Origin: a virus
Lineage: Duplodnaviria > Heunggongvirae > Uroviricota > Caudoviricetes
Strand: one strand, 5' to 3'
DNA length: 64,000 nucleotides
Virus record (IMG/VR): IMGVR_UViG_3300020723_000003
In this document: positions 25,275 through 40,319 of the stretch, in pieces
How positions within the stretch are numbered: position 1 is the stretch's first letter
Layout: every line of letters starts with the position of its first letter
Position numbers and translations under genes: made by a program
The notes under the pieces: generated by a model
Told to the model about the DNA's origin: nothing
The model's input: only the letters and a program-made list of their open reading frames with translations
Database searches by the model: none

Positions 25275-25610
25275 ATGGAAAAACGATATACAGTTGTTGG
25301 TGAAGATATTGATATATCTGATGGTTATCATACAATGTCAGAATTATATGCACATAGATGTACACTATTTGCTGCATTGTTAAAGTCTCACCCACAAGCT
25401 TCTTGGAAGAGTAAAAAACACAGCGATGGTACATCTTGGGATGGTTGGTTTATTGCTGGTATGAGATTACCAACAGGTGATGTTACATATCACCTTCCTG
25501 TAGACGAATTTTGGGAAATTCTTCCGATTGCTGAGTTGGAATTTGGTGTCGTTTGGGATGGTCATACATCTGATGATGTTGTGAGACGAATTATGGAATG
25601 GATAAAATGA
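25275..25610 (+). CDS. Hypothetical protein
   Basis: 111-aa ORF. Confidence 0.4.
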   Translation: MEKRYTVVGEDIDISDGYHTMSELYAHRCTLFAALLKSHPQASWKSKKHSDGTSWDGWFIAGMRLPTGDVTYHLPVDEFWEILPIAELEFGVVWDGHTSDDVVRRIMEWIK

Positions 25611-26317
25611 GTAGTGCTGTTGTAATAATTCCAACAATTGGTTCTGTTGTTTTAGATCAAACATTAAAAAGTTTAGAGAATCAAACTCATAAAGATGTAA
25701 CAACATTAATTGTTGTTGATGGTCCTGAATATAAATCTAAAGTTGATAATATTATAGATAAACATCCAAATTTAAACAAACAGGTTGTTTATTTACAAGA
25801 AAATGTTGGCGCAAATGGATTTTATGGACAAAGAGTATATGCTGCATTTTCCCATTTAGTAAATAAAGATTATGTTTTCTATCTTGATCAAGATAATTGG
25901 TATGAGCCTAATCATATTGAATATATGATTAATACAATAGAATCTACTGGATGCCAATGGGCATATAGTTTAAGAAATATATATTCTCCTGATGGCGATT
26001 ATTTGCTTCAAGATAATTGTGAAAGTTTGGGGAAATGGAACGCTTATACAAATACTAACATGGTTGATACTAATTGTTATTGTATTCCAAGAAATATAGC
26101 TGTAGAAATATCAAGATTTTGGCATTGTGGTTGGGGTGAAGATCGTGTTATTTTCTCTATTTTAAATGAACATTTTCCTAATTATGAATGTTCTGGTAAA
26201 TATACAATAAATTATAGATTAGGTGGAAATGTGGGTTCTGTATCAAAAGATTTTTTTGAACAGGGAAACAGTGTAATTGATAGTCAATATAAAGGAAAAT
26301 ATCCATGGGCGAAATAA
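25598..26317 (+). CDS. Glycosyltransferase family 2-like (GT-A)
   Basis: N-terminal VVIIPTIGSVVLDQTLKSLENQT...LIVVDGP is typical of GT2 with an LDQD-like DxD. Confidence 0.45.
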   Translation: MDKMSSAVVIIPTIGSVVLDQTLKSLENQTHKDVTTLIVVDGPEYKSKVDNIIDKHPNLNKQVVYLQENVGANGFYGQRVYAAFSHLVNKDYVFYLDQDNWYEPNHIEYMINTIESTGCQWAYSLRNIYSPDGDYLLQDNCESLGKWNAYTNTNMVDTNCYCIPRNIAVEISRFWHCGWGEDRVIFSILNEHFPNYECSGKYTINYRLGGNVGSVSKDFFEQGNSVIDSQYKGKYPWAK

Positions 26318-27072
26318 AAATATTATGTTATATATTTTCTTGGAAAGGTCAGTTTGAAAATGCTGTCAAATTGCAAGAACAATTATCTCCGTTATTAGAT
26401 GTAGTTGTAATAAATTCTGATGATGATAATACAAAAGAGGGTTGGATTAATATTGGGAACGAATGTTATTTTTCTGATCAGTTTAGAACTGCTCTAGATG
26501 CATTTGATGATTCAAAATATGATGTTTTGTGGCATATTCAAGCTGATGCTTCTTATTCTGAGTGGGAACCAATTATAAAATCAGCAAGAGAAAGTTATAA
26601 TACTTATAATTGGGGTGTATTTGCTCCAAATGTTAACGATACATTTTACATTTCAGAAAGAACTGATGTTTCAGATTTAGATGGAAATTTAAAACTTGTT
26701 GCAACAACTGATAATACTTGTTGGTTTATTCATAAAGATTATATTAATGCAATGAAAGCTAATTATCATTTAATGAGAGAAAATATTTTAGGTTGGGGTT
26801 GGGATTTAATTATTTGTGCTCTTAGTCATCTTGATGGTCGATATGTCATAAGAGATTATTCTTTCGAAGTTAATCATCCTACTTCAACAGGATATATGAA
26901 AGATAAAGCAGAGAAAGAAATGCAAGAAATGTTTCAAAAATGTGATTTAAAATTACAAGAAACTATTTATAATATTAAGGTAAAACCAAGAGAATTGGGA
27001 AAATTATATAATATTCAACAAGTTTCTAATTCTGCTGAAATAATTTATAATACTGCAACAGGAATTTATTGA
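26305..27072 (+). CDS. Hypothetical protein in the glycan island
   Basis: 255-aa ORF. Confidence 0.4.
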   Translation: MGEIKILCYIFSWKGQFENAVKLQEQLSPLLDVVVINSDDDNTKEGWINIGNECYFSDQFRTALDAFDDSKYDVLWHIQADASYSEWEPIIKSARESYNTYNWGVFAPNVNDTFYISERTDVSDLDGNLKLVATTDNTCWFIHKDYINAMKANYHLMRENILGWGWDLIICALSHLDGRYVIRDYSFEVNHPTSTGYMKDKAEKEMQEMFQKCDLKLQETIYNIKVKPRELGKLYNIQQVSNSAEIIYNTATGIY

Positions 27073-27911
27073 TGAAAATTTCATATTTAGATTTTTGGCC
27101 AGGATTTGATCCTTCTTCAAATTGGTTTAATTTACTATTGCGTGGTGCATTTCCTGACAGAGAAATAAAAATAACAGCACCTGAATATGCTGATGTTATT
27201 TTCTTTTCATGTTTTGGTAGTGAACATCAAGTATATAAAAATTCTAAAGCAATTAAAATTTTATATATTGGCGAAAATGAAAGACCCAATTATTCTGTTG
27301 CTGATTATTCGTTAAGTTTTGATTTTGATGATTATTCAGGAAGAAATTTTAGACTTCCTCATTGGTATCTATATATAAATTGGTGGGACGAACCAAATTT
27401 TCAACATGCTGAAATTCCATTGATTGCTTTGACTAAATGGATTGACTCTAAAGAAATTTGGAATAGAAAAGAATTTTGTTCTATAATAATTGGTAATCCA
27501 GTTCAAAATAGAATAGATACTGCAGCAAAATTAAACGAATTTAAACCTGTTCATGGATTTGGTAGGGTGTTTAATAATCCTGTAGATGATAAACTTAAAC
27601 TTTTGTACAACTATAGGTGGAATATTTGTTTTGAGAATTCTATATATGATGGATATGTGACAGAAAAATTATTACAAGCTAAAATTTCTGGGTGTATTCC
27701 TTTATATTATGGATCTAATGCAGCTACTATAGATTTTAATAAAGATTGTTATCTTGATATTACAGGTCTTTCATTAGAACAAATTTATAAAAAAGTTGTA
27801 GATATTGAAAATGATAAAAATCTATTTTTGGCTATTTCTTCTGAGCCATTATTTAATACTTTACCAACATTAGACCCATTATATAATTTTTTAAAGGATA
27901 AATTAAAATAA
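27069..27911 (+). CDS. Alpha-1,3-fucosyltransferase-like (GT10)
   Basis: YNYRWNICFENSIYDGYVTEKL matches the GT10 signature (F/L-x-F-E-N-S ... Y-V-T-E-K). Confidence 0.6.
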   Translation: MMKISYLDFWPGFDPSSNWFNLLLRGAFPDREIKITAPEYADVIFFSCFGSEHQVYKNSKAIKILYIGENERPNYSVADYSLSFDFDDYSGRNFRLPHWYLYINWWDEPNFQHAEIPLIALTKWIDSKEIWNRKEFCSIIIGNPVQNRIDTAAKLNEFKPVHGFGRVFNNPVDDKLKLLYNYRWNICFENSIYDGYVTEKLLQAKISGCIPLYYGSNAATIDFNKDCYLDITGLSLEQIYKKVVDIENDKNLFLAISSEPLFNTLPTLDPLYNFLKDKLK

Positions 27912-27912
27912 T

Positions 27913-28836
27913 ATGCAAAAAGATTTTTATGAAATAAATGATTTGATTGGTGAGCGATTACAATCTGGAGAACCATTTTCTGTTTTGCGTATTGATAATA
28001 CTGCTGGATATGTTCTTGATTGTTTACACGAAAAACAATCTCCAAGCGAAGAATTTTACAATAATTATACGTTAGTTGAAAGTGGAATTTATCCGACTGA
28101 TTTAAATTATTCATTTCAGGTTGTGATGCCTAAAACTATAGAAATGATGAAACAATGTAATATTTTAGGGTTTGTTGATGTTTCTGGTAAAATTAAAGCA
28201 AATGAAAATAAATTTTTAGATCAATTCCCAGATAAACCCACATTTTTTGATTTTCATATTTTTGATGCTGGATATATAATGGGGTATTCTAAGTTTGGAA
28301 AACTAGAAAATCCTTGGACAAAATATCTCAAAGGGAAAAAGGTTCTTATTATTTCTTCCCATGCAAAAACGATTTTACATCAATGGAAAAATATTAATAA
28401 AATATGGGGCGATAGAGTAGAAGAAATAGTTCCTTTTGAATTGGTTGATGCAATCAGTACGCCATTTCATCCTGCTATTGATGATAGACAATATAAAGAT
28501 TGTGGTGATTTTGAGCAATTAGTAAATATAACGAAAGATAGAATTGATCAATATGATTATGATGTATTATTAACAAGCGTTACAACACAATCTCCGTTTT
28601 ATGCAAATCATGCTAGAGAAAGAGGAAAGGTTGGTATACAAACTGGCGGTGCTTTACAGTTATTTTTTGGTATTTTAGGTGGAAGATGGTTGAATCCTGA
28701 TTATTATAATTATTGTTATCCATCACCAGAAAAATTATTTAATGAGTATTGGATTTATCCTCTTGAAGAAGATGAACCACAAAAACGAAACGAAATTGGA
28801 TTTCTTGAAACCTCAACTGCATATTGGAAAGTATAA
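27913..28836 (+). CDS. Hypothetical protein in the glycan island
   Basis: 307-aa ORF. Confidence 0.4.
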   Translation: MQKDFYEINDLIGERLQSGEPFSVLRIDNTAGYVLDCLHEKQSPSEEFYNNYTLVESGIYPTDLNYSFQVVMPKTIEMMKQCNILGFVDVSGKIKANENKFLDQFPDKPTFFDFHIFDAGYIMGYSKFGKLENPWTKYLKGKKVLIISSHAKTILHQWKNINKIWGDRVEEIVPFELVDAISTPFHPAIDDRQYKDCGDFEQLVNITKDRIDQYDYDVLLTSVTTQSPFYANHARERGKVGIQTGGALQLFFGILGGRWLNPDYYNYCYPSPEKLFNEYWIYPLEEDEPQKRNEIGFLETSTAYWKV

Positions 28837-28839
28837 ATT

Positions 28840-30174
28840 ATGAATAATAATGATTTAAGTGAAATTTTAGCATCAGTAAAAAGTTATGCTGAAAATAATT
28901 TGTTGACAAAAAAATGGGAAGCTGGTATTGATTATGTAAATTATGCTGGTCCATTTTTTGATCATAATGAATATGTTGCTGCCGTAAATACTATTTTAAA
29001 TGGTTGGCTTGTGATGGGAAATGATAGTTTAAAATTTGAACATAAATTTCCTAAATTTTTTGGTAAAAATCATGGGATTCTAACAAATAGTGGATCTAGT
29101 TCAAATTTGTTAATGATGTATAGCCTAACAAGCAAAAACGGTCATAATTTCCCAAAAGGAACAAAAGTCTTGATGCCTATTGCTGGTTTCCCGACAACAT
29201 TAAATCCGACACTTCAAGTTGGATTTGAACCTATATTTCTTGATATCGAATTAGATACTTTAAATCTTGATTTAACTAAAGCTGAAGACTTGATAAAAGA
29301 ACATGACATTAAAATAATAACATTTGCTCATGTTTTAGGTAATCCGCCAGATATGGACAAATTGATGGATTTAGTTAACAAATATAATTTGATTCTTTTG
29401 GAAGATTGTTGTGATGCTTTAGGTTCTAGTTATGATGGAAAACCATTAGGCAGTTTTGGTGAGATGGCTTCTTGTAGTTTTTATCCAGCACATCATATTA
29501 CAATGGGTGAAGGTGGATTTGTTTCTTGTAACACTAAAGAACAAGAAGTTATTTTAAGAAGTTTAAGAGAGTGGGGTCGTGGTTGTTATTGTGTTGGTCC
29601 CAAAGCAAATACCCTAAAATGTGGAACATGTAAAAATAGATTTAGTAATTGGATTCCAGCATTGGAAAATGAAACTTTTGATCACAAATATGTTTATGAT
29701 GAAATTGGATTTAATTTAAAGCCTATTGAAATGCAAGCATCAATTGGTCTTCATCAAATTGAGAAATTGGATACTATTGGACAATTAAGAAAGAAAAATT
29801 ATAATCTGTTATTTCAAATTTATGAAAAATATGAAGAATTCTTTCATCTTCCAAGAGCTAGAGATAAATCTGATGTGAGTTGGTTTGCTTTTCCATTGAC
29901 TATTAGAAAAGGTGCTCCATTTACACGATTTGAGTTTGTTAATTATCTTGAAAATAAAAAAATTCAAACTAGACCATATTTTGCTGGAAATATTATGTTA
30001 CAACCTGCGTATACACATATTATGGATACAAATACTGCAAAAGTGAATTATCCAAATGCAACATATACTACTACACATACATTATTCCATGGAACAAGTC
30101 CAGTAATTAGCGATGATCAAATTGCCTATATAAAAATAGTAGTAGATGATTTTATGAAACAGTTTATAGGATAG
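28840..30174 (+). CDS. DegT/RfbH-family PMP-dependent sugar 3-dehydrase (E1/DdhC-like)
   Basis: 444 aa. CSFYPAHHITMGEGGF has His in the position of the PLP lysine, as in the E1 dehydrase. Cys-rich CYCVGPKANTLKCGTCKNRF is consistent with an Fe-S motif. Confidence 0.65.
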   Translation: MNNNDLSEILASVKSYAENNLLTKKWEAGIDYVNYAGPFFDHNEYVAAVNTILNGWLVMGNDSLKFEHKFPKFFGKNHGILTNSGSSSNLLMMYSLTSKNGHNFPKGTKVLMPIAGFPTTLNPTLQVGFEPIFLDIELDTLNLDLTKAEDLIKEHDIKIITFAHVLGNPPDMDKLMDLVNKYNLILLEDCCDALGSSYDGKPLGSFGEMASCSFYPAHHITMGEGGFVSCNTKEQEVILRSLREWGRGCYCVGPKANTLKCGTCKNRFSNWIPALENETFDHKYVYDEIGFNLKPIEMQASIGLHQIEKLDTIGQLRKKNYNLLFQIYEKYEEFFHLPRARDKSDVSWFAFPLTIRKGAPFTRFEFVNYLENKKIQTRPYFAGNIMLQPAYTHIMDTNTAKVNYPNATYTTTHTLFHGTSPVISDDQIAYIKIVVDDFMKQFIG

Positions 30175-30177
30175 GTT

Positions 30178-30864
30178 ATGATTTTATTGGCATCTATTCA
30201 TACCCCATTAAATGGGTATGAACAAAATGATTTTTCTGAAGTTGCAAATATTACTTGGAATTTAAATAAGGTAAATTATGCTAAAAAACATAATTATCTT
30301 GCAATAAGTAAATCGAATGGTTTTTATAATGTTCAAATAGGGTTTGAAAAAATAATTTTTCTTTATGATTTGTTAGTTAGCGTTCCTCAGTGTTCTTGGA
30401 TTTGGTGGACTGGTTGTGATACACTAATTACAAATTTTAATGTTAGAGTTGAAGAAAAGCTTGAAGAAGCATTAAACATAAATCCAAACGCAAATATTAT
30501 TATGAGTGGTGATTTTAATTTCCCTATTAATAGTGATTCTATTTTGATTAAAAATACTGAAGAATCGAAATTGTGGTTAAAATTTATACTTGATAATTTT
30601 GAGGTATATTCACAAAAACCATATTTTGAACAAGAATGTATGATTGATTTTTTATCAAATTTTGATAAACTGATTCAAATAATGCCACAAAATTTTATGA
30701 ATAGTTATGATGAAAATTCGGCTGATAGTGAAAAGATAAAATTTGATACAAAAGGTAATAGAGGTAATTGGGAAAAGGGTGATTGGTTACTACATCTTGC
30801 TGGAATTAGCTGGCAAAAACGTGCCCAATTGGTTAAACAATATTCTAAAGAAATAATATATTAA
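30178..30864 (+). CDS. Hypothetical protein
   Basis: 228-aa ORF. Confidence 0.4.
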   Translation: MILLASIHTPLNGYEQNDFSEVANITWNLNKVNYAKKHNYLAISKSNGFYNVQIGFEKIIFLYDLLVSVPQCSWIWWTGCDTLITNFNVRVEEKLEEALNINPNANIIMSGDFNFPINSDSILIKNTEESKLWLKFILDNFEVYSQKPYFEQECMIDFLSNFDKLIQIMPQNFMNSYDENSADSEKIKFDTKGNRGNWEKGDWLLHLAGISWQKRAQLVKQYSKEIIY

Positions 30865-30865
30865 T

Positions 30866-31492
30866 ATGAAAGATCAAGAACTTATTGAATTTGAAAACAA
30901 AGTTGCTGATTTGTTTAATAATAAACAAATTAGAGCTCCTATCCATTTATATCATGGAAATGAAAAGCAAATACAAACAGTATTTGAAAAAATAGATACT
31001 GAAAATGACTGGGTTTGTTGTACATGGAGAAATCACTATCAATGCTTATTAAAAGGTGTTCCTGAAGAATTGTTGATAGAGAAAATCCTTGCTGGTAAAA
31101 GTATGGTAATAAACTTGGAACAATATAAAATTGTATGTTCAAGTATTGTTGGTGGAATTCCTAGTATTGCAGCTGGTATTGCAAAAGCAATCCAACTTAA
31201 AGAAGAAAAATCTAGAGTCTGGTGTTGGTTAGGGGATATGAGTGCTGAAACTGGAGCTTTTCATGAAGCATATAAATATGCTGTTGGATTTAATCTTCCA
31301 ATAACATTTATTGTTGAAGATAATGGATTAAGTGTTACATCTCCAACTTCAGAAATTTGGGGTAGACAAACTCCTTGGTATTTACCTGAAGAGTTTACTG
31401 GTGATAAATTTGAATCAGAACATTTAATATACTACAAATATAAAAACGAAAAATATCCTCATGCTGGTGCTGGGGTTAGGGTGGAATTTTAA
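30866..31492 (+). CDS. TPP-dependent enzyme, alpha/N-terminal subunit (transketolase/E1-like)
   Basis: TPP-binding GDG-x(26)-N motif: LGDMSAETGAFHEAYKYAVGFNLPITFIVEDNG. Confidence 0.55.
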   Translation: MKDQELIEFENKVADLFNNKQIRAPIHLYHGNEKQIQTVFEKIDTENDWVCCTWRNHYQCLLKGVPEELLIEKILAGKSMVINLEQYKIVCSSIVGGIPSIAAGIAKAIQLKEEKSRVWCWLGDMSAETGAFHEAYKYAVGFNLPITFIVEDNGLSVTSPTSEIWGRQTPWYLPEEFTGDKFESEHLIYYKYKNEKYPHAGAGVRVEF

Positions 31493-31493
31493 T

Positions 31494-32036
31494 ATGAATG
31501 AACAACAATTATATAATAATGAATTGATCGCTGCCATGAAATGGCTTTCTGAGCAAGAAAATACTTTATTTTTGGGTCAGGCTGTTAAATATCCAGGAAC
31601 TGGATTATTTCAAACATTACATTCTGTTCCTGACGAATTGAAACTTGAATTTCCTGTTACCGAAAATTTACAAATAGGATTTAGTATTGGAATGGCATTA
31701 AATGGTATTGTTCCAATTTCTATTTTCCCAAGGTGGAATTTTCTTGTTTGTGCCGCCGATCAACTCGTCAATCATTTAGATAAATTGCCGTCAATGAGTC
31801 TTGGTGAATATAACCCAAAAGTTATCATTAGAGTTGCTGTTGGGTCAGAATTACCTATCGATCCACAAGACCAACATAAAGGTAATTTTTCTGAAGGATT
31901 TAGAAATTTGTTTAAACATGTAGATATTATTGAATTACACACACCTGATGATATTTTAAAAAGTTATCAGTATGCATATAATAGAACTGATAATAAAAGT
32001 ACAATATTAGTAGAATTTTCTGATTATGGAAAATGA
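31494..32036 (+). CDS. TPP-dependent enzyme, beta/C-terminal subunit
   Basis: Follows the alpha subunit. Start chosen at the Met with a GGTGGA RBS; pyrimidine-binding-domain-like. Confidence 0.4.
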   Translation: MNEQQLYNNELIAAMKWLSEQENTLFLGQAVKYPGTGLFQTLHSVPDELKLEFPVTENLQIGFSIGMALNGIVPISIFPRWNFLVCAADQLVNHLDKLPSMSLGEYNPKVIIRVAVGSELPIDPQDQHKGNFSEGFRNLFKHVDIIELHTPDDILKSYQYAYNRTDNKSTILVEFSDYGK

Positions 32037-32820
32037 TTCTGATATTTTAATATTAGGATCTACAGGATTTATTGGTAATTTTCTTTCAAAGAATTTAAAT
32101 TGTGTTTCATTGTCTAGAAACGATGTCAATTTTTTGGATTTTGATTCTTTGTATAAATGTATAAAAAAAATAAAACCAAAAGTTGTTGTTAATTGTGCGT
32201 CTAATGTTGATACCCAATTAACAACATTTAAATTTGAATGTTTCCATGAAAACTTAACATTATATAATAATATATATAAAATGAAAGACGAATTTGAATT
32301 TGTTCTTCATTTTGGTTCTGGGGCTGAATTTGATAGATCTTCTTCTATTGATTATGTTAAAGAATACGAAATCTTTAAAAAATTCCCAAAAGATCATTAT
32401 GGTTTTAGTAAAAATATAATTTCAAGAAATATTTATGAGGTTGATAATTTTTATAACCTTAGATTATTCGGTTGTTTTCATGGCTCAGAAAAATCTAGAT
32501 TGTTGTATAAGGTATTATTAGAAGATAATATAATACTAGAAGATAAGTTGTTTGATTATTTTTGGTTGAATGATGTTCTTGAAGTTATAAATTATTATTT
32601 AAATCCGAAAAACGAAAAAATAAAAGATTTGAATTTGGTATATAAAGAAAAATATCTGTTAAGTGAGTTTGTAAATAAATTTTTAACATTCCATAACATT
32701 CAAAAAACAATTAAATTCAAAGATTCACATATAAATTATACAGGTTCGTCTAAAGTATTAGATTCATTAAATTTAAATTTTGGCGGTATTGAAAAGGGCA
32801 TTAAGGATTATTTTAAATGA
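32026..32820 (+). CDS. NAD-dependent epimerase/reductase (SDR)
   Basis: Rossmann GSTGFIGNFL at the N-terminus. Confidence 0.45.
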   Translation: MENDSDILILGSTGFIGNFLSKNLNCVSLSRNDVNFLDFDSLYKCIKKIKPKVVVNCASNVDTQLTTFKFECFHENLTLYNNIYKMKDEFEFVLHFGSGAEFDRSSSIDYVKEYEIFKKFPKDHYGFSKNIISRNIYEVDNFYNLRLFGCFHGSEKSRLLYKVLLEDNIILEDKLFDYFWLNDVLEVINYYLNPKNEKIKDLNLVYKEKYLLSEFVNKFLTFHNIQKTIKFKDSHINYTGSSKVLDSLNLNFGGIEKGIKDYFK

Positions 32821-33764
32821 AAAAGATTATTTATATTACAGGATGTCTAGGGTTTATAGGTTCTGAAATAACAAGAGCATATTTAGATAAAGGTTGGTAT
32901 GTTATTGGTGTTGATAAAGTCACATATGCTGCAAATGAATCATTAATACCAGAATTTGAATCATATTCAAATTTTAAATTTATAAAATCAGATATAAACG
33001 ATTTAGAATATCTTTATGATTGTGATTATATTATTAACACAGCAGCCGAAACACATGTAGACAATTCTATAATAAGTTCTAGCGAATTTTTAAATAGTAA
33101 CATTAATGGTGTGCATCATCTATTGGAGTTAATAAAACAAAAACATAAATTTAAAATGCCAACATTACTACATTTCAGTACTGATGAAGTTTATGGTGAT
33201 ATAGTTGATGGGTTTCATAAAGAATATGATTTATTAAAACCTTCAAATCCTTATTCGGCAACAAAAGCTTCTGCGGATATGCTTGTTCTTGCATGGAATA
33301 GAACTTTTAATATTCCTTATGTTATTGTACGTCCAACAAATAATTATGGTATTGGTCAGTATGTTGAAAAATTAATACCTAAAACATGTAAATATCTGCA
33401 ATTAGATAGAAAAATTCCTGTACATGAAAATGGAAAACCAAAACGAACTTGGTTACATGTTTCTGATACTGTTTCAGCAGTTATACATATAATTGAATCG
33501 GGAGTAACAAATTCAATTTTTAATATTTCTGGAAATTATGAAGATGAGAATATTAAAGTAGTTGACAAAATCATAAAATTATATTATAATACTTCTATAG
33601 ATTATAATAATTATGTTGATTTTAAATATAATAGGATTGGTCAAGATGTTAGGTATGCTATTGATGATTCAAAATTAAAATCTCTTGGATGGAATCCTGT
33701 TGCAAATTTTGATTTAGAATTAGAGAAAATTGTTGAATATAATAAAAATCACTTTATATGGTGA
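32817..33764 (+). CDS. NDP-sugar 4,6-dehydratase/epimerase (extended SDR)
   Basis: GCLGFIGSEI Rossmann motif and YSATK catalytic YxxxK. Confidence 0.6.
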   Translation: MKKIIYITGCLGFIGSEITRAYLDKGWYVIGVDKVTYAANESLIPEFESYSNFKFIKSDINDLEYLYDCDYIINTAAETHVDNSIISSSEFLNSNINGVHHLLELIKQKHKFKMPTLLHFSTDEVYGDIVDGFHKEYDLLKPSNPYSATKASADMLVLAWNRTFNIPYVIVRPTNNYGIGQYVEKLIPKTCKYLQLDRKIPVHENGKPKRTWLHVSDTVSAVIHIIESGVTNSIFNISGNYEDENIKVVDKIIKLYYNTSIDYNNYVDFKYNRIGQDVRYAIDDSKLKSLGWNPVANFDLELEKIVEYNKNHFIW

Positions 33765-33782
33765 TTAATTGAAGGTGAACTT

Positions 33783-34790
33783 ATGAAGAAAGCGTTAATA
33801 TTTGGTGTAACTGGTCAAGATGGGAGTTATCTTTCTGAAATTCTTTTAGAAAAAGGTTATGAGGTTCATGGTGTAAAACGAAGAAGTTCTTCATATAATA
33901 CATCACGAATCGATCATATCTATGAAAACAAAAACTTTAAATTACATTATGGTGATGTTACTGATTCGCTTAATGTGACAAGTCTTATTCAAGCAATTCA
34001 GCCTGATGAGATCTATAATTTGTCCGCTCAATCTCATGTAAAAGTTTCTTTTGAAATTCCAGAATATACTGCGAATGTTGATGCTGTAGGTACTCTTAGA
34101 GTTCTTGAATCTATTCGTTTACTTGGTATGGAAAATCGAGTTAAATTTTATCAAGCATCAACTTCTGAATTGTATGGTTTAGTGCAAGAAATTCCACAAA
34201 AAGAAACAACTCCATTTTATCCAAGAAGTCCATATGGCGTTGCTAAACTCTATGGATTTTGGATTGTAAAAAATTATAGAGAATCATATAATATATTTGC
34301 GTGTAATGGTATTTTATTTAATCACGAATCTGAGAGAAGAGGTGAAACTTTTGTCACTCAGAAAATTGTAATGGGATTAAATGATATTTCTCAAGGCAAA
34401 TCAGACATATTGACGCTTGGTAATTTAAATGCATTAAGAGATTGGGGTCATGCTAAAGATTATTGTTATGCCATGCATTTAATGCTCCAACAAGATACTC
34501 CAGATGATTATGTCGTTGCTACTGGCGAACAATATTCCGTTAGACAATTTGTAGAAGCTTGCGCCCCGCATTTTAATATGAACATTGAATGGCAAGGTGA
34601 AGGCTTGGATGAAACTGGAATTGATGTTAATACTGGAAAAACTATAATTGCAGTTGATCCTAAGTATTTTAGACCAGCAGAAGTTGCAACATTATTAGGT
34701 GATTCTACAAAAGCTAGAACTGTATTAGGATGGAAACCAGAATATAGTTTTATTGATTTGGTTGAAGAAATGTGTTTAGGGGTTCAATAG
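33783..34790 (+). CDS. gmd: GDP-mannose 4,6-dehydratase
   Basis: [47 protein letters not shown] is the canonical Gmd N-terminus. YGVAK catalytic motif. 335 aa. Confidence 0.85.
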
Positions 34791-35549
34791 GTGAGCATAG
34801 TTTTACGTGAAGAATCTGGTCGTGGATTTTTGTCAAATTATATTACAATTTTAAATTCGTATAAAAAGTTTGTTGGTAAAGAAGGAATATCTTATAAAGA
34901 TATACACATTTCAACAGAACATTTTAAATTGTATGGTGGAAATCCTAGAGAATGGTTTGATGTTTATAATTTTTCTGATGGCGACGAAAACTCGGAATTC
35001 TGGAGTACTGGAGAGTTAAATGAAATTGAAGAATATCCAAATGTTGAATCCTTAAATTTATTAAGTTATTCAAAGTTTATACCATATAATACAAGACTTA
35101 AAACATTTCTTAATAAAAATATAAAATCATTAAATAAATGTTTAGGTGTTCATTATAGAGGGACTGATCATTTTAATGCTGTTATTAAACCTGATATTAT
35201 GTTTCTTAATGTAGAAGAACAGTTAAAAACAGGTAAATATGAGCAAATTTTTATTTGTAGCGAACAACAAAACTTTATTGATCTTATAGCAGGTTTTGTT
35301 CAAATTAATTTTAATGACGTTGATATAATTGTTAATGATGTTGAACGATGTGATTCAACTCCTGTATTTTATTTAGATACCAATAAGATATCATTAGGCG
35401 ATCAAGTTTTATTGGATGCTCATATGTTATCAGCTTGTGATTTTGTATTGGGTAAATCATCAAACATTGTTAGTTATGCACGGATTCTAAATTTAAGTTT
35501 GAATGGTTTTTATTTAGATACTCAAAAATATTTTTTAATTGGTAATTAA
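34791..35549 (+). CDS. Hypothetical protein (GTG start)
   Basis: 252-aa ORF between gmd and fcl. Confidence 0.35.
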   Translation: MSIVLREESGRGFLSNYITILNSYKKFVGKEGISYKDIHISTEHFKLYGGNPREWFDVYNFSDGDENSEFWSTGELNEIEEYPNVESLNLLSYSKFIPYNTRLKTFLNKNIKSLNKCLGVHYRGTDHFNAVIKPDIMFLNVEEQLKTGKYEQIFICSEQQNFIDLIAGFVQINFNDVDIIVNDVERCDSTPVFYLDTNKISLGDQVLLDAHMLSACDFVLGKSSNIVSYARILNLSLNGFYLDTQKYFLIGN

Positions 35550-35551
35550 TT

Positions 35552-36484
35552 ATGGAAAAGAATTCAAAAATTTATGTTGCTGGCCATAATGGCTTAGTTG
35601 GTTCGGCAATTGTTAGAAAATTAAAAGAATTAGGATATACTAATCTTGTTTTAAAAACAAGAAAAGAATTAGATCTTAGGAATCAATATGCTGTTGACAG
35701 GTTTTTTGATATTGAGCGACCTGAATATGTTTTTGTTGCTGCAGCAAAAGTTGGTGGAATTAATTACAATAAAATGTATCCTGCAGAATTTATTACTGAA
35801 AATTTACAAATTCAAACAAATATAATCAAAAGTGCTTTTGATTATAGAATAAAAAAGATTTGTCAATTGGGTACTGCTTGCATTTATCCTAAAATAACAG
35901 AACAACCAATAAAAGAAGAATACTTAATGACAGGTCCATTAGAACATACTAATGAAGCTTATGCATTAGCTAAAATTTCTGGTTTGATGATGTGTAAAAA
36001 ATATTATGAACAATATGGATTTAAAAGTATTAATGTGATGCCAACAAATCTTTATGGTATAAATGATAGATTTGATGTGAATCATGGTCATGTTATTCCT
36101 GGATTAATTAATAAATTTTTAGAAGCTAAAGAAAGCAATTCTAGTAGTGTAGAATGTTGGGGAACTGGTACTCCTACAAGAGAATTTTTATTTTCTGATG
36201 ATTTAGCTGATGCATTGATTTTTCTGATGAATACTCAAGAATATGTTGATTTGATTAATATTGGTATTGATAATGAAATTACTATTAAAGAATTGGCAGA
36301 AAAGATTAAAGATTTGGTTGGATATGAAGGTGAAATAATTTGGAATTCTGATAAACCGGATGGAACTCCAAGAAGAAAGATGTGTAATGCTAAATTGAAA
36401 GAACTTGGTTGGAAACCAAAATATACTTTAGAAGAAGGATTAAAAATAACATTAGATTGGTATTTGGAAAACATTAGGTCATAA
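35552..36484 (+). CDS. fcl: GDP-4-keto-6-deoxymannose 3,5-epimerase/4-reductase (GDP-fucose synthase or ColC-like)
   Basis: KIYVAGHNGLVGSAIVR N-terminus, YALAK motif. 310 aa, typical of Fcl/WcaG. Confidence 0.8.
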   Translation: MEKNSKIYVAGHNGLVGSAIVRKLKELGYTNLVLKTRKELDLRNQYAVDRFFDIERPEYVFVAAAKVGGINYNKMYPAEFITENLQIQTNIIKSAFDYRIKKICQLGTACIYPKITEQPIKEEYLMTGPLEHTNEAYALAKISGLMMCKKYYEQYGFKSINVMPTNLYGINDRFDVNHGHVIPGLINKFLEAKESNSSSVECWGTGTPTREFLFSDDLADALIFLMNTQEYVDLINIGIDNEITIKELAEKIKDLVGYEGEIIWNSDKPDGTPRRKMCNAKLKELGWKPKYTLEEGLKITLDWYLENIRS

Positions 36485-36486
36485 TA

Positions 36487-37665
36487 ATGAAAAAATTGAA
36501 ATTGAAATGTGGTTGGAAATTGATGAATAATTCTATCACAATAAAAGATAGAATTAATTTGGCTAAATTTGTTTTATTTTCTGATAGATTCACTATGGCA
36601 GATAAAGTAAACCAAGTAGAGAAAGAATGGGCTGAATGGGTTGGCGCTAAACATTCTTTATTTGTTTCTTCTGGAAGTACTGCAAATTTTTTATTATTAG
36701 CTGCGATTAAAGAAAAATTTAATTTAAAACAAAAAGATAAAGTTTTAGTTTCTTCTTGTACTTGGATGACAAATGTTTCTCCAGTAATGCAATTAGGTTT
36801 TACTCCTATCTTTTGTGATGTTTCTTTTGATAATTTCAGTTTTGATGAATCTGAATTAGCATATATTTCAGAAAAACATCCTGACATTAAAGTTGTTTTT
36901 ACAACACACCTTTTGGGATTTAATTCAGATACTAAAATATTAGAATCATATTTTCCAAATGCTATCATATTAGAAGATGCGTGTGAAGCAATGGGCGCAA
37001 AAGCTAATGATGGAACTTATCTTGGTGCAAATTCTTTAGGGTGTACATTCAGTTCATATTTTGGTCATACTATTTCTTCAATTGAAGGTGGTTTTGTTAC
37101 TACAAATGATACAGAATTATATGATTTGATGAAAATGAAAAGAAGTCATGGTTTAGCGAGAGAATCAATATTTTTTGATGATTATGCTGCCAAATATCCT
37201 TATATTGATAAACAGTTTTTATTTATTACTGATGGTTATAATTTCAGAAACCACGAAATATGTGCAATTTTAGCTTCTTCTCAGATTAAAAGATTAAAAT
37301 CCTTTGTTGATATTAGAAGTAAAAATCATAAATTGTTTTCTGAGATGACTGAAAAATATTTAGATAAAATTCAACAGATTAAATTTTATGAAACTAGTGC
37401 GAGTTTTTGTTTTCCTATTATATGTAAGGATGCAGAATCGTTATCTAAATTAAAAACGTTGTTGGTAGAATATGATATTGAATATAGACCAATTTTATCT
37501 GGAAATTTATTAAAACATCCATTTCTAAAAGATTATATATTGACAACGAATCGTTTAGTCGCTAATGTTGATGTATTACACACTAATGGATTATATATAG
37601 GAAATAATCAATTTGTATCTGAAAAACATTTAAAGTTATTGGATAAAGTTTTAAGTTTATTATAA
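36487..37665 (+). CDS. DegT-family PMP-dependent dehydratase, ColD-like (His replaces the PLP lysine)
   Basis: 392 aa. SSGSTANFLLLAAI and FSSYFGHTISSIEGGFVTTND with His in place of Lys, as in GDP-4-keto-6-deoxymannose 3-dehydratase ColD. Adjacent to gmd/fcl. Confidence 0.55.
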   Translation: MKKLKLKCGWKLMNNSITIKDRINLAKFVLFSDRFTMADKVNQVEKEWAEWVGAKHSLFVSSGSTANFLLLAAIKEKFNLKQKDKVLVSSCTWMTNVSPVMQLGFTPIFCDVSFDNFSFDESELAYISEKHPDIKVVFTTHLLGFNSDTKILESYFPNAIILEDACEAMGAKANDGTYLGANSLGCTFSSYFGHTISSIEGGFVTTNDTELYDLMKMKRSHGLARESIFFDDYAAKYPYIDKQFLFITDGYNFRNHEICAILASSQIKRLKSFVDIRSKNHKLFSEMTEKYLDKIQQIKFYETSASFCFPIICKDAESLSKLKTLLVEYDIEYRPILSGNLLKHPFLKDYILTTNRLVANVDVLHTNGLYIGNNQFVSEKHLKLLDKVLSLL

Positions 37666-37672
37666 GGGTTTT

Positions 37673-38518
37673 ATGAATTCAATTAGAGAAAAGGTAAAAG
37701 AACTTAGTGTTGTTTTTGTAGGTCCAACAAGAGATAGTTCTGGAAATCTTACAAAAATATTTGAGAATATTGAAAGAATTGGTGGACTATTTAAATCTTT
37801 TTCTTGTGTATTTGTGGAAAGTGATTCTTCTGATAATACTTTAGAAATTCTTAAAAATTATAAAAGTGGTCGCGATAATATTCATATACTTTCTTTAGGG
37901 AAATTAGAAGATAGAATTAATTCTAGAACATGTAGGATTGCTACAGCAAGAAATGTTGGGATTGAATATTGTGAACAAAATAATATCTTAGATACTCATG
38001 ATTATTATATTCATATGTGTGTTGATGATGTTAATAGTGAAAAGATTGAAGAAGAAGATTTCTTAAGTTGCTTTAAATACGACATATCTTCTTGGGAAGG
38101 TATGACAGCAAATCAGTTAAATTATTATGATATTTGGTGTTTACGAGCAAAAGGTTGGGTTGAAAATGATTGTTGGTATGCAATTCATAATAGACCTTCT
38201 TATATGTCTTATGATGAAGCATTTATAATGTATGTAGGATCTAAATTTATACAAATTCCAAAAAATTACGGTTTAATTGAAGTTGATGCTGCTCATGGCG
38301 GTTTTGGAATCTACAAAAGTTCTTTTGCTAAAGGTTCTCGGTATAGAGGTTCTTCTGAAGCTGGTAATGCAGAAGAATGTGATTTAGTAAATTTCTGTAG
38401 TGATGTTAAGAAGAAAGGTGGAAGAATATTTATAAACTCAGAATTGATGAATATGAATAATGTAAATAATAGACATGATACCACAGTTCAAAGTTTACGA
38501 TCTTTAGGTAAATTGTAA
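37673..38518 (+). CDS. Hypothetical protein
   Basis: 281-aa ORF. Confidence 0.4.
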   Translation: MNSIREKVKELSVVFVGPTRDSSGNLTKIFENIERIGGLFKSFSCVFVESDSSDNTLEILKNYKSGRDNIHILSLGKLEDRINSRTCRIATARNVGIEYCEQNNILDTHDYYIHMCVDDVNSEKIEEEDFLSCFKYDISSWEGMTANQLNYYDIWCLRAKGWVENDCWYAIHNRPSYMSYDEAFIMYVGSKFIQIPKNYGLIEVDAAHGGFGIYKSSFAKGSRYRGSSEAGNAEECDLVNFCSDVKKKGGRIFINSELMNMNNVNNRHDTTVQSLRSLGKL

Positions 38519-39303
38519 TGGGAAATATTACTAATACAAATATTCATGGGTCGTGTCTATTAGGGTCTCAAATGTTTGAGTATTCTTATTTAATTGCTGT
38601 TTCTTTAGAAAATCCTGGAGTTGTTCCAGGATTTTATTTAAAAAATCTTCCTGGAATGTTTGGTTTGTTAATAAATTTTCCATTTATACATAAACCTAAA
38701 ATTTTTGAAGGAGAATGTGATTATTCTGGTATAAACTACAATCCTTCTGATGTTTTAGCTTTTGATCGTAATTATGATATACATTTCAATTTCGATTATA
38801 GCATTTTTCATAAACATAAAGAATATTTGTTAAATTTATATACATTTTTGCCAGAAATATATTCTAATTGTAATACATGGATAAAAGATAATTCTTCACC
38901 AGACGAATTGTTAGTTTCAATCCATTTTAGAAGAGGCGATTATTTATCGATTTCTTCATTAAACCTTTCTTTAGAATATTTTTATGGAGCAGTTGAAACA
39001 ATTAAAAATAAACTTCCAAATTCAACATTAAAATTTGTGTGTTTTTCTAATGATATTACATGGGTGAAAGAGAAATTTGTTGGTATAGATAATATGATAT
39101 TTGTTGAATCGTTATCTGATCCTGAACAAATGTGTTTAATGTCTTTATGTGACCATAATATCATTGCAAATAGTAGTTATAGTTGGTGGGGTGCATATTT
39201 AAATAAGACACCTGAAACAATAACTATTTGTCCATCAAGTTATGGTAGTGCAGATGTAATAAGTTATTATCCTGATGAATGGATAAGAATGAACGTGCTT
39301 TAA
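38518..39303 (+). CDS. Alpha-1,2-fucosyltransferase-like (GT11)
   Basis: VSIHFRRGDYLS matches GT11 motif I (HxRRGDY). Confidence 0.6.
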   Translation: MGNITNTNIHGSCLLGSQMFEYSYLIAVSLENPGVVPGFYLKNLPGMFGLLINFPFIHKPKIFEGECDYSGINYNPSDVLAFDRNYDIHFNFDYSIFHKHKEYLLNLYTFLPEIYSNCNTWIKDNSSPDELLVSIHFRRGDYLSISSLNLSLEYFYGAVETIKNKLPNSTLKFVCFSNDITWVKEKFVGIDNMIFVESLSDPEQMCLMSLCDHNIIANSSYSWWGAYLNKTPETITICPSSYGSADVISYYPDEWIRMNVL

Positions 39304-40319
39304 TTGAGATTAATATGATAATAGAATCTGATGTAAATAATATAATAAAATCTATAGATTTTGAAAAACTAAGGAATAAATCTATCTTAATCACAGGATC
39401 TTCTGGGTTATTAGGAATTTATTTTGTTTCTTGTTTAAAAACAATACAGAAAGAATATAATATTGATGCTTATTTTTGGATAAAAAGTGATATTGATTCA
39501 AATTTTAAATCCTTTTTTGATTTTGATTGTCATATAATTAAGGAAGATATTAGCGATCTAAAAGCATTCGATTCATTACCTATGTTTGATTTTATTATTC
39601 ATTCATCAGGTTATGGTCAGCCAGATAAATTCTTAGAAGATCAGATAAAAACCATCCAAATAAACACCACAGCTACAATTAATTTATTTGAAAAATTAAA
39701 TCCAAATGGAACATTTTTATTTTTAAGTTCTAGTGAAGTTTATAATGGTTTAGATAAGTTTTCTGTGTCAGAAGATGAGATCGGGGTATCAAATACAACT
39801 AACCCTAGAGCGTGTTATATTGAATCAAAGCGTTGTGGTGAAGCTATTTGTCATATTCAAAAAAATATGGGTAAAGATGTAAAAATTGCTAGATTGAGTT
39901 TAACATATGGTCCAGGAACAAAACCGTTTGATACTAGGGTTGTTAGTTCTTTGATTCAAAAATCTATATTAAATGATTCTATAGAATTGAGAGATAGGGG
40001 CGAAGCTATTAGAACTTATTGTTATATTTCTGATGTAATAGAAATGATGTGGAATATTATTTTGCATGGAAAAGAAGTGACTTATAATGTTGGTGGAAAT
40101 ACTACATTTAGTATATTTGAAATGGCAAATATTATCTCTACTAAAACGAATAAACCAATACTTTTGCCAGAAACATCAAAAACGTTAACTGGCAGCCCTA
40201 AAGTTGTTAATATTAATATTGATAAGTATATATCCGAATTTAACAAAACTTCATTCATTGCTCTTGATGAAGGTTTAAATAATACAATTCTTTGGCAACA
40301 ACATATATACAAAATTTAA
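39279..40319 (+). CDS. NAD-dependent epimerase/dehydratase
   Basis: ITGSSGLLGIYF Rossmann motif; YIESK YxxxK. Confidence 0.5.
   Translation: MDKNERALIEINMIIESDVNNIIKSIDFEKLRNKSILITGSSGLLGIYFVSCLKTIQKEYNIDAYFWIKSDIDSNFKSFFDFDCHIIKEDISDLKAFDSLPMFDFIIHSSGYGQPDKFLEDQIKTIQINTTATINLFEKLNPNGTFLFLSSSEVYNGLDKFSVSEDEIGVSNTTNPRACYIESKRCGEAICHIQKNMGKDVKIARLSLTYGPGTKPFDTRVVSSLIQKSILNDSIELRDRGEAIRTYCYISDVIEMMWNIILHGKEVTYNVGGNTTFSIFEMANIISTKTNKPILLPETSKTLTGSPKVVNINIDKYISEFNKTSFIALDEGLNNTILWQQHIYKI

Follow-up and report, generated by a model that had tools for sequence, protein, structure and literature searches.

Gene content, integrity and setting of the island

We analysed a 64,000-nucleotide stretch of viral DNA (Caudoviricetes; IMG/VR record IMGVR_UViG_3300020723_000003), hereafter the window, in which a first-pass annotation had placed a glycan-biosynthesis island within the replication module. 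The island occupies positions 25598-40319, precisely as proposed, running without gaps from the start of a GT2 glycosyltransferase gene (o1) to the stop of a short-chain dehydrogenase/reductase (SDR) gene (o17). It comprises 17 intact open reading frames (ORFs) on the + strand, and its ORF junctions range from -32 to +18 nt, which leaves no space for further genes; the earlier count of at least 20 co-directional genes was therefore right in orientation and too high in number. Downstream of o1 we divide the genes into cassette A (o2 to o10) and cassette B (o11 to o17):

25598..26317, + strand: o1, GT2 glycosyltransferase, the conserved 'anchor' of the locus (Pfam Glycos_transf_2, 47.7 bits)
26305..27072, + strand: o2, conserved protein with no function assigned that accompanies o3 and o4 (homologues lie beside GT10 genes)
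27069..27911, + strand: o3, GT10 alpha-1,3/4-fucosyltransferase-like (FucT_N 64.5 bits, Glyco_transf_10 39.2 bits)
27913..28836, + strand: o4, putative glycosyltransferase with a GT-D-like fold (weak Pfam GT-D-like match, 26.4 bits against a cut-off of 27)
28840..30174, + strand: o5, E1/RfbH-type NDP-4-keto-6-deoxyhexose 3-dehydrase, dependent on pyridoxamine phosphate (PMP) and Fe-S (RfbH equivalog)
30178..30864, + strand: o6, GT34-like glycosyltransferase (Pfam Glyco_transf_34, 65.9 bits, cut-off 23)
30866..31492, + strand: o7, minimal thiamine diphosphate (ThDP) enzyme, alpha (PP-domain) subunit (Pfam E1_dh, 63.7 bits)
31461..32036, + strand: o8, minimal ThDP enzyme, beta (Pyr-domain) subunit (weak Transket_pyr match, 20.7 bits)
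32026..32820, + strand: o9, short SDR with an RmlD-like N-terminus, putative ketoreductase (Pfam Epimerase 29.3 bits, RmlD_sub_bind 26.4 bits)
32817..33764, + strand: o10, RmlB-type NDP-glucose 4,6-dehydratase (dTDP_gluc_dehyt profile and PDB matches)
33783..34790, + strand: o11, Gmd (GDP-mannose 4,6-dehydratase; NCBIfam gmd equivalog)
34791..35549, + strand: o12, GT23/NodZ-like protein of the fucosyltransferase superfamily (profile and fold search)
35552..36484, + strand: o13, Fcl/ColC-like GDP-4-keto-(3,)6-deoxymannose epimerase-reductase (profile, motifs and synteny)
36487..37665, + strand: o14, ColD-type GDP-4-keto-6-deoxy-D-mannose 3-dehydratase (DegT protein; PDB match to ColD/WbdK)
37673..38518, + strand: o15, putative glycosyltransferase, weakly GT2-like (Pfam Glycos_transf_2, 19.5 bits, below cut-off)
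38518..39303, + strand: o16, GT11 alpha-1,2-fucosyl(colitosyl)transferase-like (Pfam Glyco_transf_11, 84.4 bits, cut-off 23.9)
39279..40319, + strand: o17, UXS-like SDR (UDP-glucuronate decarboxylase-like, exact reaction uncertain; Pfam Epimerase, 112 bits)

The island is resident phage DNA, neither an artefact nor a recent foreign insertion. One independent assembly (L002) matches it at 100% identity and two more at 99.9%, L003 over its whole length and L004 over the 9.9 kb of it that this assembly covers. All ORFs are open, with no internal stops across the assemblies compared, so the concern that key enzymes might be pseudogenised does not apply; near-identical assemblies differ by 9 synonymous and 6 non-synonymous changes, too few for dN/dS. 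The enzyme families are typical of bacterial O-antigen clusters, and this is what might suggest that the region is not phage-encoded, being instead either a piece of a bacterial O-antigen locus that misassembly fused to phage DNA or host DNA taken up recently and now decaying. However, the same 14.7-kb stretch recurs with its phage flanks in independent assemblies, GC content (0.281 against 0.29-0.30) and GC3 match those of the phage core genes, the spacing is operon-tight and free of stops, homologous islands lie between gp41 and a primase-like gene in many viral contigs, and the nearest cellular homologues found for the ThDP subunits are only ~43% identical. We consider a non-phage origin effectively refuted, its remaining probability being negligible, and for the same reasons rejected both misassembly or pseudogenes and a compositionally distinct foreign island.

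The placement within the replication module is also borne out, with gp43, UvsX and gp41 upstream and a primase-like gene, ThyX and NrdB/NrdA downstream. The left flank includes:

19196-21742: gp43 DNA polymerase, upstream flank
23859-25271, + strand: gp41 helicase, left anchor (55% identity to cyanophage gp41 by tblastn)
25275-25610, + strand: WDGH-domain protein, left anchor (PF25311 WDGH listed in assembly L002)

The gp41 and WDGH flank is common to all relatives that we looked at. On the right, the island is followed by a 117-nt gap and nine genes, then by the primase-like gene, ThyX and NrdB/NrdA. The genes directly downstream gave no family matches except for a cytidylyltransferase-like C-terminus in a 491-aa protein. 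This protein (41374-42849) carries an HxGH-type motif, SHEGH, in that region (phrog_3041, phrog_395) and resembles a conserved 'cytidyltransferase' of P-SSM2; a late-promoter-like TATAAATA precedes its gene. Judged by its core genes the phage is T4-like, the window opening with the end of gp23 and closing with a tail fibre gene, and the description 'lytic myovirus' is a reasonable one. Core proteins are 45-57% identical to those of any cultured phage, the nearest being cyanomyoviruses, and the island gave no megablast match among 50,697 phage records; the phage is thus without a close cultured relative.

Two predicted nucleotide-sugar pathways

Cassette B opens with o11, whose identification as Gmd is secure: it scores 545.3 bits against the TIGR01472 gmd equivalog (cut-off 415) and 483 bits against Pfam GDP_Man_Dehyd, and it carries the motifs STSELYG (with the catalytic Thr/Glu) and YGVAK (YxxxK). 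A protein identical to o11 is indexed in 75 collection blocks. By far the closest family of o13 is Fcl, with 418 bits against NCBIfam NF047922 (GDP-L-fucose synthase) and 88 bits for the next best family; the score lies under the equivalog cut-off of 500, which is compatible with a ColC, and the earlier Fcl/ColC-like call is retained in that form. Its motifs GTACIYP, YALAK and GHVIPG may correspond to Ser107, Cys109, Tyr136, Lys140 and His179 of E. coli GMER, the Ser/Thr-Tyr-Lys triad and the Cys/His acid-base pair for epimerisation.

The third enzyme of this group, o14, has ColD/WbdK as its best PDB match (2GMS, 175.6 bits), against 94.9 bits for E1 and at most 87 bits for aminotransferases, and matches phrog_3139 with 356 bits; in L002 it is called from a later start, giving 380 aa. 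ColD is a DegT/fold-type I enzyme with His188 in place of the Schiff-base lysine, and o14 shares this trait. In the alignment, the His of its SSYFGHTISSIEGG (aa 189-202) falls on His188, which is the first His of ColD SSFYSHHIATMEGG and the position that carries Asn in the 3B8X mutant. The first-pass call of a ColD-like enzyme is upheld, with ColD scoring above both RfbH/E1 and the aminotransferases. The gene order from o11 to o14 (Gmd, GT23-like, Fcl/ColC-like, ColD-type) is likewise the context of a ColD. In 42 IMG/VR contigs the trio gmd - fcl/colC - colD keeps this order, in most cases with GT10- or GT11-like genes next, and it occurs also in the cultured Synechococcus phage ACG-2014f, where it is annotated only as 'nucleotide-sugar epimerase' (twice) and 'aminotransferase'; because of this recurrence the genomic context of cassette B is strong. 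At the end of the cassette, o17 finds its best PDB matches among UDP-glucuronate decarboxylases (94 bits) and carries SSSEVYN and YIESK. It is one of five SDRs in the island, in keeping with the 'several' epimerases and dehydratases first noticed.

Taken together, these assignments outline a pathway in which Gmd would convert host GDP-mannose to GDP-4-keto-6-deoxymannose, o14 would remove the 3-OH from that product, and o13 would epimerise and reduce the result to GDP-L-colitose; acting directly on the Gmd product, o13 would instead give GDP-L-fucose. Cassette B should yield GDP-L-colitose and/or GDP-L-fucose, a capacity already proposed and well founded on the three family calls.

Within cassette A, o5 exceeds the cut-off of the RfbH equivalog NF011936 (430.2 bits against 423) and matches E1 in the PDB (3BCX, 323.7 bits), as had been suggested. 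Its SFYPAHHITMGEGG (aa 213-226) is identical to that of Yersinia E1, including the His that replaces Lys (the His220 motif), and the Cys residues in EDCCD and CYC...C(K) align with E1 cysteines that are the presumed ligands of the [2Fe-2S] cluster. We found no E3 (AscD/RfbI) reductase partner, that is, no FAD/NAD/Fer2-type protein in the scanned ORFs of island and window or in the corresponding cassettes of L058-L060. The CDP-sugar context of RfbF and RfbG is also absent: the dehydratase present is RmlB-type, and no NTP_transferase was found in the scanned ORFs. This dehydratase, o10, scores 290 bits against NCBIfam dTDP_gluc_dehyt (below the cut-off of 365) compared with 67.6 bits against the CDP-glucose dehydratase model, all of its top PDB matches are dTDP-glucose 4,6-dehydratases (up to 228 bits), and it carries STDEVYG and YSATK. 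The idea of an 'abequose-type' sugar made by a CDP pathway was therefore rejected, there being, besides the RmlB-type partner, no cytidylyltransferase, E3 or identifiable abequose/paratose synthase.

Genes o7 and o8 bear out the prediction of a two-subunit ThDP enzyme. In o7 (208 aa) the ThDP-binding stretch, residues 123-154 (GDMSAETG...VEDNG), finds its aligned counterpart in BCKDH and PDH E1-alpha; o7 has 3504 homologues, of which the best 120 are 63-99% identical and 205-225 aa long. Its partner o8 scores 37.8 bits against the PDH E1-beta NCBIfam model and likely starts near 31494, giving 180 aa as called in L002. In phage and cellular loci o8 always adjoins o7, and the two match the C-terminal and N-terminal halves, respectively, of the fused family phrog_34187. 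Cellular short ThDP alpha/beta pairs sit among sugar genes (GHMP kinase, RmlC, SDR). A scan of cellular genomes for the alpha subunit gave only four distant matches, at ~43% identity, so the host is not inferable from that scan. Fused o7/o8-type enzymes are present in P-TIM68 (167767-168912; L130) and S-SM2 (149451-149930), annotated as 'transketolase central region-containing protein'. The P-TIM68 gene lies in a cluster with a carbohydrate kinase, a heptose-7-P kinase/adenylyltransferase, a phosphoheptose isomerase, SDRs and transferases, which suggests ThDP-dependent modification of a heptose-type sugar there.

The order RfbH - ThDP alpha - ThDP beta - SDR is contiguous in three unrelated large viral contigs (L058, L059 and L060), at 62-73% identity for o5, o7 and o8. 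Homologues of o9, 33-49% identical, directly follow the ThDP pair in these three and in L063, L068 and L071, and an RmlB-type dehydratase 64-73% identical to o10 comes right after the block in L058 and L060 and shortly before it (64%) in L059. RfbH-like genes are found also in S-H68, S-B05 and S-B43. As to the contigs themselves, L058 (346 kb) also encodes endonuclease VII, several GT34-like proteins and a CHASE2-guanylate cyclase, and L059 (206 kb) encodes two enzymes of the 7-deazaguanine type, GTP cyclohydrolase I and PTPS. In L060, a distant T4-like contig, the RfbH-like gene (7546-10008; 820-aa product) holds an intein with a LAGLIDADG endonuclease. Inteins usually occupy essential, conserved genes, and this one hints that the enzyme matters to the phage.

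Addition of carbon branches to such sugars has precedent. The E1-alpha/beta-like AviB1/B2 and Plm8/Plm9 and the ThDP flavoprotein YerE attach a pyruvate-derived C2 branch at the C-4 ketone of NDP-deoxyhexoses, and YerE, in yersiniose biosynthesis, acts on exactly the E1 product (PMC4753412, PMC4802897). By analogy, o10 would take host NDP-glucose, probably dTDP-glucose, and o5 would follow with electrons from host ferredoxin- or flavodoxin-type reductases, the two giving an NDP-4-keto-3,6-dideoxyhexose. The o7/o8 enzyme would then use pyruvate to extend the C-4 ketone by a two-carbon branch, and the SDR o9 would reduce the branched product. Because the RfbH-ThDP-SDR-RmlB block is conserved and these precedents exist, we infer that the product of cassette A is a C-4-branched, yersiniose-like 3,6-dideoxyhexose, probably dTDP-linked.

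Several points weigh against these pathways as drawn, and they make the case for cassette A weaker than that for cassette B. At 208 aa, o7 is about half the length of the E1 alpha chains that it matched (365-400 aa). The likeness of the ThDP subunits to AviB1/Plm8 is one of subunit type and gene setting, and the heptose-type setting of the fused P-TIM68 homologue means that the substrate may differ. E1 activity without E3 is an assumption in which host reductases must substitute. For cassette B, o13 falls short of the Fcl equivalog cut-off and may be either a ColC or an Fcl. Furthermore, neither a sugar-1-phosphate nucleotidyltransferase nor a phosphomutase nor an E3 reductase was found among the window ORFs scanned, so both pathways depend on host supply.

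A GT2-anchored variable locus, its transferases and their proposed acceptor

The family of o1, a 239-aa soluble GT2, counts at least 1728 proteins, many of them on contigs of 150-170 kb. Neither tblastn against cultured phages nor phmmer against the PDB gave a match for o1, and the acceptor is thus not inferable from relatives. A GT2 of this family, at 40-81% identity, sits beside gp41 or WDGH in all relatives looked at. In those with gp41 70-75% identical, and in a second clade at 56%, it is followed by differing sugar genes, among them C-methyltransferases, DegT aminotransferases, an acetyltransferase, a HAD-nucleotidyltransferase fusion, HtrL/YibB, DUF8361, and other SDRs and GT2s. These variable loci span ~6-10 kb before the conserved right-hand genes resume, and at least eight architectures were seen. 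Four relatives (L063, L068, L071 and L096) have nearly the architecture of the window's island; L060 has cassette A without B, and L096 has cassette B without the RfbH block. Between L060 and the window the sugar enzymes are 60-73% identical and gp41 and gp43 45-49%, a pattern that would fit cassette exchange, although some such enzymes, Gmd for one, are conserved by nature. Given the conserved flanks, the GT2 at the edge and at least eight differing gene contents, the locus by its gene arrangement acts like a bacterial O-antigen locus, with a fixed position, a conserved edge gene and modular, variable content. With gene content, family membership, conserved catalytic residues, synteny and locus variability all observed, we would describe the island as a phage-encoded, wholly cytoplasmic rare-sugar/glycan factory, composed of two exchangeable cassettes in a hypervariable GT2-anchored slot beside gp41.

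The GT2-, GT10- and GT11-like transferases first noticed are upheld, the latter two with scores above the Pfam cut-offs and catalytic motifs present. The best PDB match of o3 is H. pylori FucT (2NZW/5ZOI, 89.9 bits), and its GENERPN (aa 68-74) and YVTEK (aa 196-200) align with GENESPN and YVTEK of that enzyme, the catalytic Glu being kept. In o16 the HxRRGDY motif reads HFRRGDY (aa 136-142), and the protein matches phrog_2644, a glycosyltransferase family; colitosyltransferases such as WbgN are of the GT11 kind. To these the profile and model searches add four candidates beyond the original list: the GT34-like o6, the GT-D-like o4, the weakly GT2-like o15 and the GT23/NodZ-like o12. GT34-like genes flank the equivalent of cassette A in L058. 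The NCBIfam GT-D_rel score of o4 is 20.7 bits, and o4 is 40-63% conserved beside o3 in L060, L068, L071 and L096; homologues of o15, 54-63% identical, directly follow the ColD-like gene in L063, L068, L069, L071 and L096. Although o12 has no Pfam match, a 22-sequence profile recovered FUT8 (E=1.7e-5), NodZ (2.5e-5) and POFUT1 (0.016), with GVHYRGTD aligned to GVHVRRTD (HxRxxD). Its AlphaFold2 model (pLDDT 91.5) gave 40 top Foldseek matches in the PDB that are all GDP-fucose fucosyltransferases (best E=2.4e-7, TM ~0.6). Profile and predicted fold thus place o12 in the FUT8/NodZ superfamily, which is not to say in CAZy family GT23.

As for o2, no Pfam, NCBIfam or PHROG match was found, and its homologues (40-60% identity) adjoin GT10 genes in L060, L096, L083, L086 and L092. 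In the PDB its profile matched designed TPR repeats only, over one short W-N-x-G-N-x-x-Y segment; we judged these matches spurious and rejected a TPR assignment; the single-sequence AlphaFold2 model was unusable (pLDDT 39.8).

No transmembrane segment is predicted in any of the 17 island proteins, all of which are predicted to be soluble; the only 19-residue window above the threshold of 1.6 is the Rossmann-fold N-terminus of o17. Neither an initiating transferase nor a Wzx/Wzy/ABC exporter was found in the island or the window ORFs scanned. A complete O-antigen or capsule cluster (Wzx/Wzy or ABC) was rejected on these grounds, there being no membrane proteins and no match to such a Pfam family, and so was a Gtr-type seroconversion module (GtrABC, Oac, Wzy-replacement), which would likewise need membrane proteins; the soluble o1 lacks the C-terminal helices of GtrB. 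We propose that seven or eight soluble transferases (GT2, GT10, GT-D-like, GT34-like, GT23-like, GT2-like, GT11 and perhaps o2) would assemble a deoxyhexose-rich oligosaccharide at the cytoplasmic face.

Two candidate expression signals were considered:

33562..33590, + strand: sigma-70 consensus TTGACA-17-TATAAT, the only 12/12 match in 22000-41500
40400..40407, + strand: T4-type late-promoter-like TATAAATA, in the 117-nt gap after the island

The first lies within the 3' end of o10, ~190 nt before gmd at the boundary between the cassettes, and is a possible internal promoter. The second, by its placement only, is suggestive of a right-hand transcriptional boundary, and no late-promoter motif occurs on the + strand between gp43 and the island start. 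Tight ORF junctions run on from gp41 into the island, which appears from this arrangement to be transcribed with the early/middle replication genes.

The acceptor, like the sugar identities, the nucleotide carrier, the branching reaction and the timing of expression, is something that we infer. In the reading that we favour it would be a lipid-linked or core intermediate of a host envelope glycan, which host machinery would export, so that the surface of the infected cell would be remodelled, with receptor masking or superinfection exclusion as the outcome. Lipid-linked or core intermediates are within reach of soluble transferases before the host exports them, and both the contiguity with early/middle replication genes and the position of the only nearby late motif, just after the island, are as expected for an exclusion function. 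Host-surface modification is also the published reading for comparable clusters of cyanomyoviruses and pelagimyophages (PMC9602691, PMC12801897, PMC7029224). We hold the biosynthetic part of this reading to be very probable; the whole of it, host-envelope acceptor included, we put forward tentatively, at somewhat under an even chance.

Other observations count against this reading as a whole or against its host-envelope acceptor. Neither for this nor for any comparable phage cluster has an enzyme activity or a glycan been observed. The island contains no initiating transferase, flippase, polymerase, ligase or Gtr/Oac-type membrane protein; the well-studied systems by which phages modify O-antigens are, as far as is known, all found in temperate phages and all work through membrane proteins. 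Promoter motifs give weak evidence, their counts being at or below chance: neither sigma-70-like sites nor TATAAATA exceed shuffled expectation, the latter being found 10 times in the window against 17 expected. Finally, conservation of the anchor GT2 across phages with probably differing hosts fits a phage-encoded acceptor better.

Such an acceptor might be a virion protein (of capsid, decoration, tail or fibre), on which the glycan would be built while still in the cytoplasm; o1 would attach the first sugar to a conserved phage acceptor and the variable remainder would produce virion 'glycotypes'. The solubility of all enzymes and the lack of export machinery speak for this, as do the conservation of the anchor GT2 beside gp41 while the downstream genes differ, and a self-contained transferase set that includes GT-D-like and POFUT/FUT8-superfamily proteins. 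We know of no virion glycosylation reported for T4-like phages of Gram-negative hosts, however, and the locus lies in the replication module, away from structural genes, with the sole nearby late-promoter-like motif placed after it and no candidate acceptor sequence identified. In its favour there are precedents: for their capsid or fibril glycans, chloroviruses and mimiviruses have Gmd/GMER and cytoplasmic transferases of their own (PMC9614988), and mycobacteriophage virions are glycosylated by phage transferases, according to Freeman et al. 2023 as cited in PMC12801897. On balance we consider virion glycosylation rather unlikely, while ranking it next after the host-envelope reading.

A further alternative, DNA as the acceptor, which the first-pass annotation did not name beside host-surface remodelling and virion glycosylation, arises from a pair of genes upstream of the island in the same window:

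1996-3414, - strand: Tet_JBP 2OG/Fe dioxygenase (97 bits)
643-1983, - strand: GT1 glycosyltransferase (35 bits), adjoining Tet_JBP

Located between gp23 and the tail-tube/UvsY/UvsW genes, this pair looks, from its family matches, like a module for DNA base oxidation and glycosylation of the 5-hydroxymethylcytosine (5hmC) or 5-hydroxymethyluracil (5hmU) type. The TET gene is 63-73% conserved in 18 related contigs and the adjoining GT1 is not; the distance from TET to gp23 varies from 0.9 to 3.8 kb across them, which therefore marks a second small variable slot. The island might then supply rare NDP-sugars, perhaps together with extending transferases, for the oxidised bases, and its variability would reflect an arms race with modification-dependent restriction. 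Besides the presence of both systems in one window, TET genes occur in contigs of gp41-GT2 relatives (L009, L010, L011 and L017, which are the contigs of L126, L128, L111 and L115), and the island's place in the replication module with apparent early/middle expression would suit DNA modification. Phage transferases linked to methyltransferase (MT)/5mYOX systems put mono-, di- and trisaccharides on 5hmC, resemble lipopolysaccharide (LPS) enzymes, and in some cases need a partner sugar epimerase (bioRxiv 10.1101/2023.12.21.572611). Yet 22 kb separate the island from TET, which lies on the other strand, whereas the DNA-glycosylation clusters described so far adjoin the oxygenase gene; a set of seven or eight transferases, with the glycan-acceptor families GT10, GT11 and GT23-like among them, exceeds anything known on DNA; and no DNA methyltransferase was seen among the ORFs scanned. 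The more distant phages with a like architecture (L063, L068, L071 and L096) are absent from the TET scan, which finds only close relatives. We regard a role in DNA hypermodification as highly improbable.

A bolder idea, which we think doubtful, is that the gp41 slot is the phage counterpart of a bacterial O-antigen locus, in which the anchor GT2 would start a glycan on a virion protein or an oxidised DNA base and exchanged cassettes would create 'phage serotypes', one of them the first viral C-branched 3,6-dideoxyhexose pathway with a minimal ThDP enzyme. If it were true, hypervariable coats of rare sugars, or rare-sugar adducts on DNA, would be a feature of uncultured T4-like phages that infect aquatic bacteria.

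Relation to other phage genes and to known glycan systems

Elsewhere in the window we noted several features of the phage. No photosynthesis or curli genes were seen among the ORFs scanned. UvsX (21757-23388) is split into two ORFs (302 aa and 185 aa) with ~165 nt between them; in the relative L054 a NUMOD3 homing-endonuclease-like ORF lies between the halves, and other relatives have a single UvsX gene of 336-360 aa. The large subunit of ribonucleotide reductase (51271-53590) is also interrupted, with Intein_splicing signatures at the C-terminus of its first ORF (51271-52419) and the N-terminus of its second (52589-53590), which lie 170 nt apart; this may be a frameshift-broken intein or a split intein. 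A peptide deformylase gene and an SPFH/Band-7 gene, at 11074-11670 and 54036-54893, are auxiliary genes as in cyanomyoviruses, and ACG-2014f likewise has a deformylase. Lastly, a 264-aa ORF in the replication module (11694-12488) has a weak match to Anp1, a mannosyltransferase-like family (23 bits against a cut-off of 28.8), and may be a further glycosyltransferase outside the island.

Glycan-biosynthesis auxiliary clusters are already known from T4-like aquatic phages, and those of S-SCSM1, S-SCSM2R and P-SSM2, with gmd, fcl, GT10 and GT11 genes, have been published (PMC9602691, PMC12801897). Together with the trio in 42 contigs and ACG-2014f and the RfbH-like genes of S-H68, S-B05 and S-B43, they make the earlier description of this chemistry as 'unusual for a phage' an overstatement. 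Given the GT2-anchored loci in relatives and the recurrence of the trio, deoxy-sugar chemistry in phages is under-annotated rather than rare. What is new here, on the strength of the family and fold assignments, is the explicit colitose assignment, present yet unrecognised in cultured cyanophages; the RfbH and minimal-ThDP cassette, which by analogy would imply a branched dideoxyhexose; a predicted third fucosyltransferase-type enzyme, o12; and, shared by a large uncultured lineage, a hypervariable locus that sits at the junction with gp41 and is anchored by a GT2.

Annotations of 'LPS genes' in marine T4-like phages go back to the earliest cyanophage genomes, none of the clusters having a demonstrated product or target. 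The island offers a concrete, testable prediction, namely GDP-colitose or GDP-fucose together with a ThDP-branched 3,6-dideoxyhexose, and since the cassettes are widespread but generically annotated in the cultured phages ACG-2014f, S-H68/S-B05 and P-TIM68, the predictions can be tested there. Should the glycan prove to be on virions or DNA rather than on the host, ideas on how phages in aquatic systems recognise hosts, evade restriction and are lost to grazing or adsorption would change. The minimal ThDP alpha/beta enzyme is in addition a candidate biocatalyst for tertiary alcohols on sugars.

Among known systems, the bacterial colitose pathway (E. coli O55/O111, Yersinia pseudotuberculosis, Vibrio cholerae O139) is closest to cassette B. 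Enzymes of the Gmd, ColD/WbdK and ColC/WbdJ types are all present and adjacent, o14 keeps the catalytic His that replaces Lys, and a GT11-type transferase is present. Unlike colitose loci, the island lacks ManB/ManC and wzx/wzy, and o13 remains below the Fcl cut-off. Cassette A resembles the pathways of yersiniose A and other C-4 branched sugars in its succession of 4,6-dehydratase, E1 3-deoxygenation, ThDP-dependent C2 addition and ketoreduction (PMC4753412, PMC4802897). As for AviB1/B2 and Plm8/9, adjacent E1-alpha-like and E1-beta-like subunits lie among NDP-4-keto-sugar genes, though the substrates of the AviB/Plm enzymes, which belong to antibiotic pathways of Gram-positive bacteria, are 2,6-dideoxy or pentose sugars. 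YerE, in contrast, is a single acetolactate-synthase-like flavoprotein, the phage enzyme being an alpha/beta pair of 208 + 180-191 aa, and unlike the yersiniose pathway (E1/E3, YerE, YerF) the island has no E3 and an RmlB-type rather than a CDP-type dehydratase.

Giant viruses (PBCV-1 with GMD/GMER and A064R-type enzymes; Mimivirus, Megavirinae) share with the island a virus-encoded, host-independent synthesis of bacterial-type rare sugars in the cytoplasm, soluble transferases and variable, clade-specific gene content (PMC9614988); however, their hosts are eukaryotes and they have known acceptors (major capsid protein, fibrils), whereas the host here is a bacterium. With phage MT/5mYOX(TET)/glycosyltransferase clusters the phage shares a TET/JBP oxygenase beside a GT1 in the same genome (10.1101/2023.12.21.572611; PMC8256090). 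The island differs from these clusters in not being contiguous with TET, in being far larger and in holding glycan-extending fucosyltransferase families.

The clusters of T4-like cyanomyoviruses (P-SSM2, S-SCSM1, S-SCSM2R, ACG-2014f) and pelagimyophages are the nearest phage counterparts, with co-directional Gmd, GDP-fucose synthase, SDR epimerases, GT2, GT10, GT11 and NodZ-type genes (PMC9602691, PMC12801897, PMC7029224). Those clusters lie near tail fibre and hli genes, whereas the island lies between gp41 and a primase-like gene, is anchored by a GT2 family absent by tblastn from all cultured phages, and adds the RfbH - ThDP - SDR - RmlB cassette. The likeness is most evident in ACG-2014f, which has gmd (72% identity), fcl/colC (49%), a colD-like gene (49%) and a GT11-like gene in the same order.

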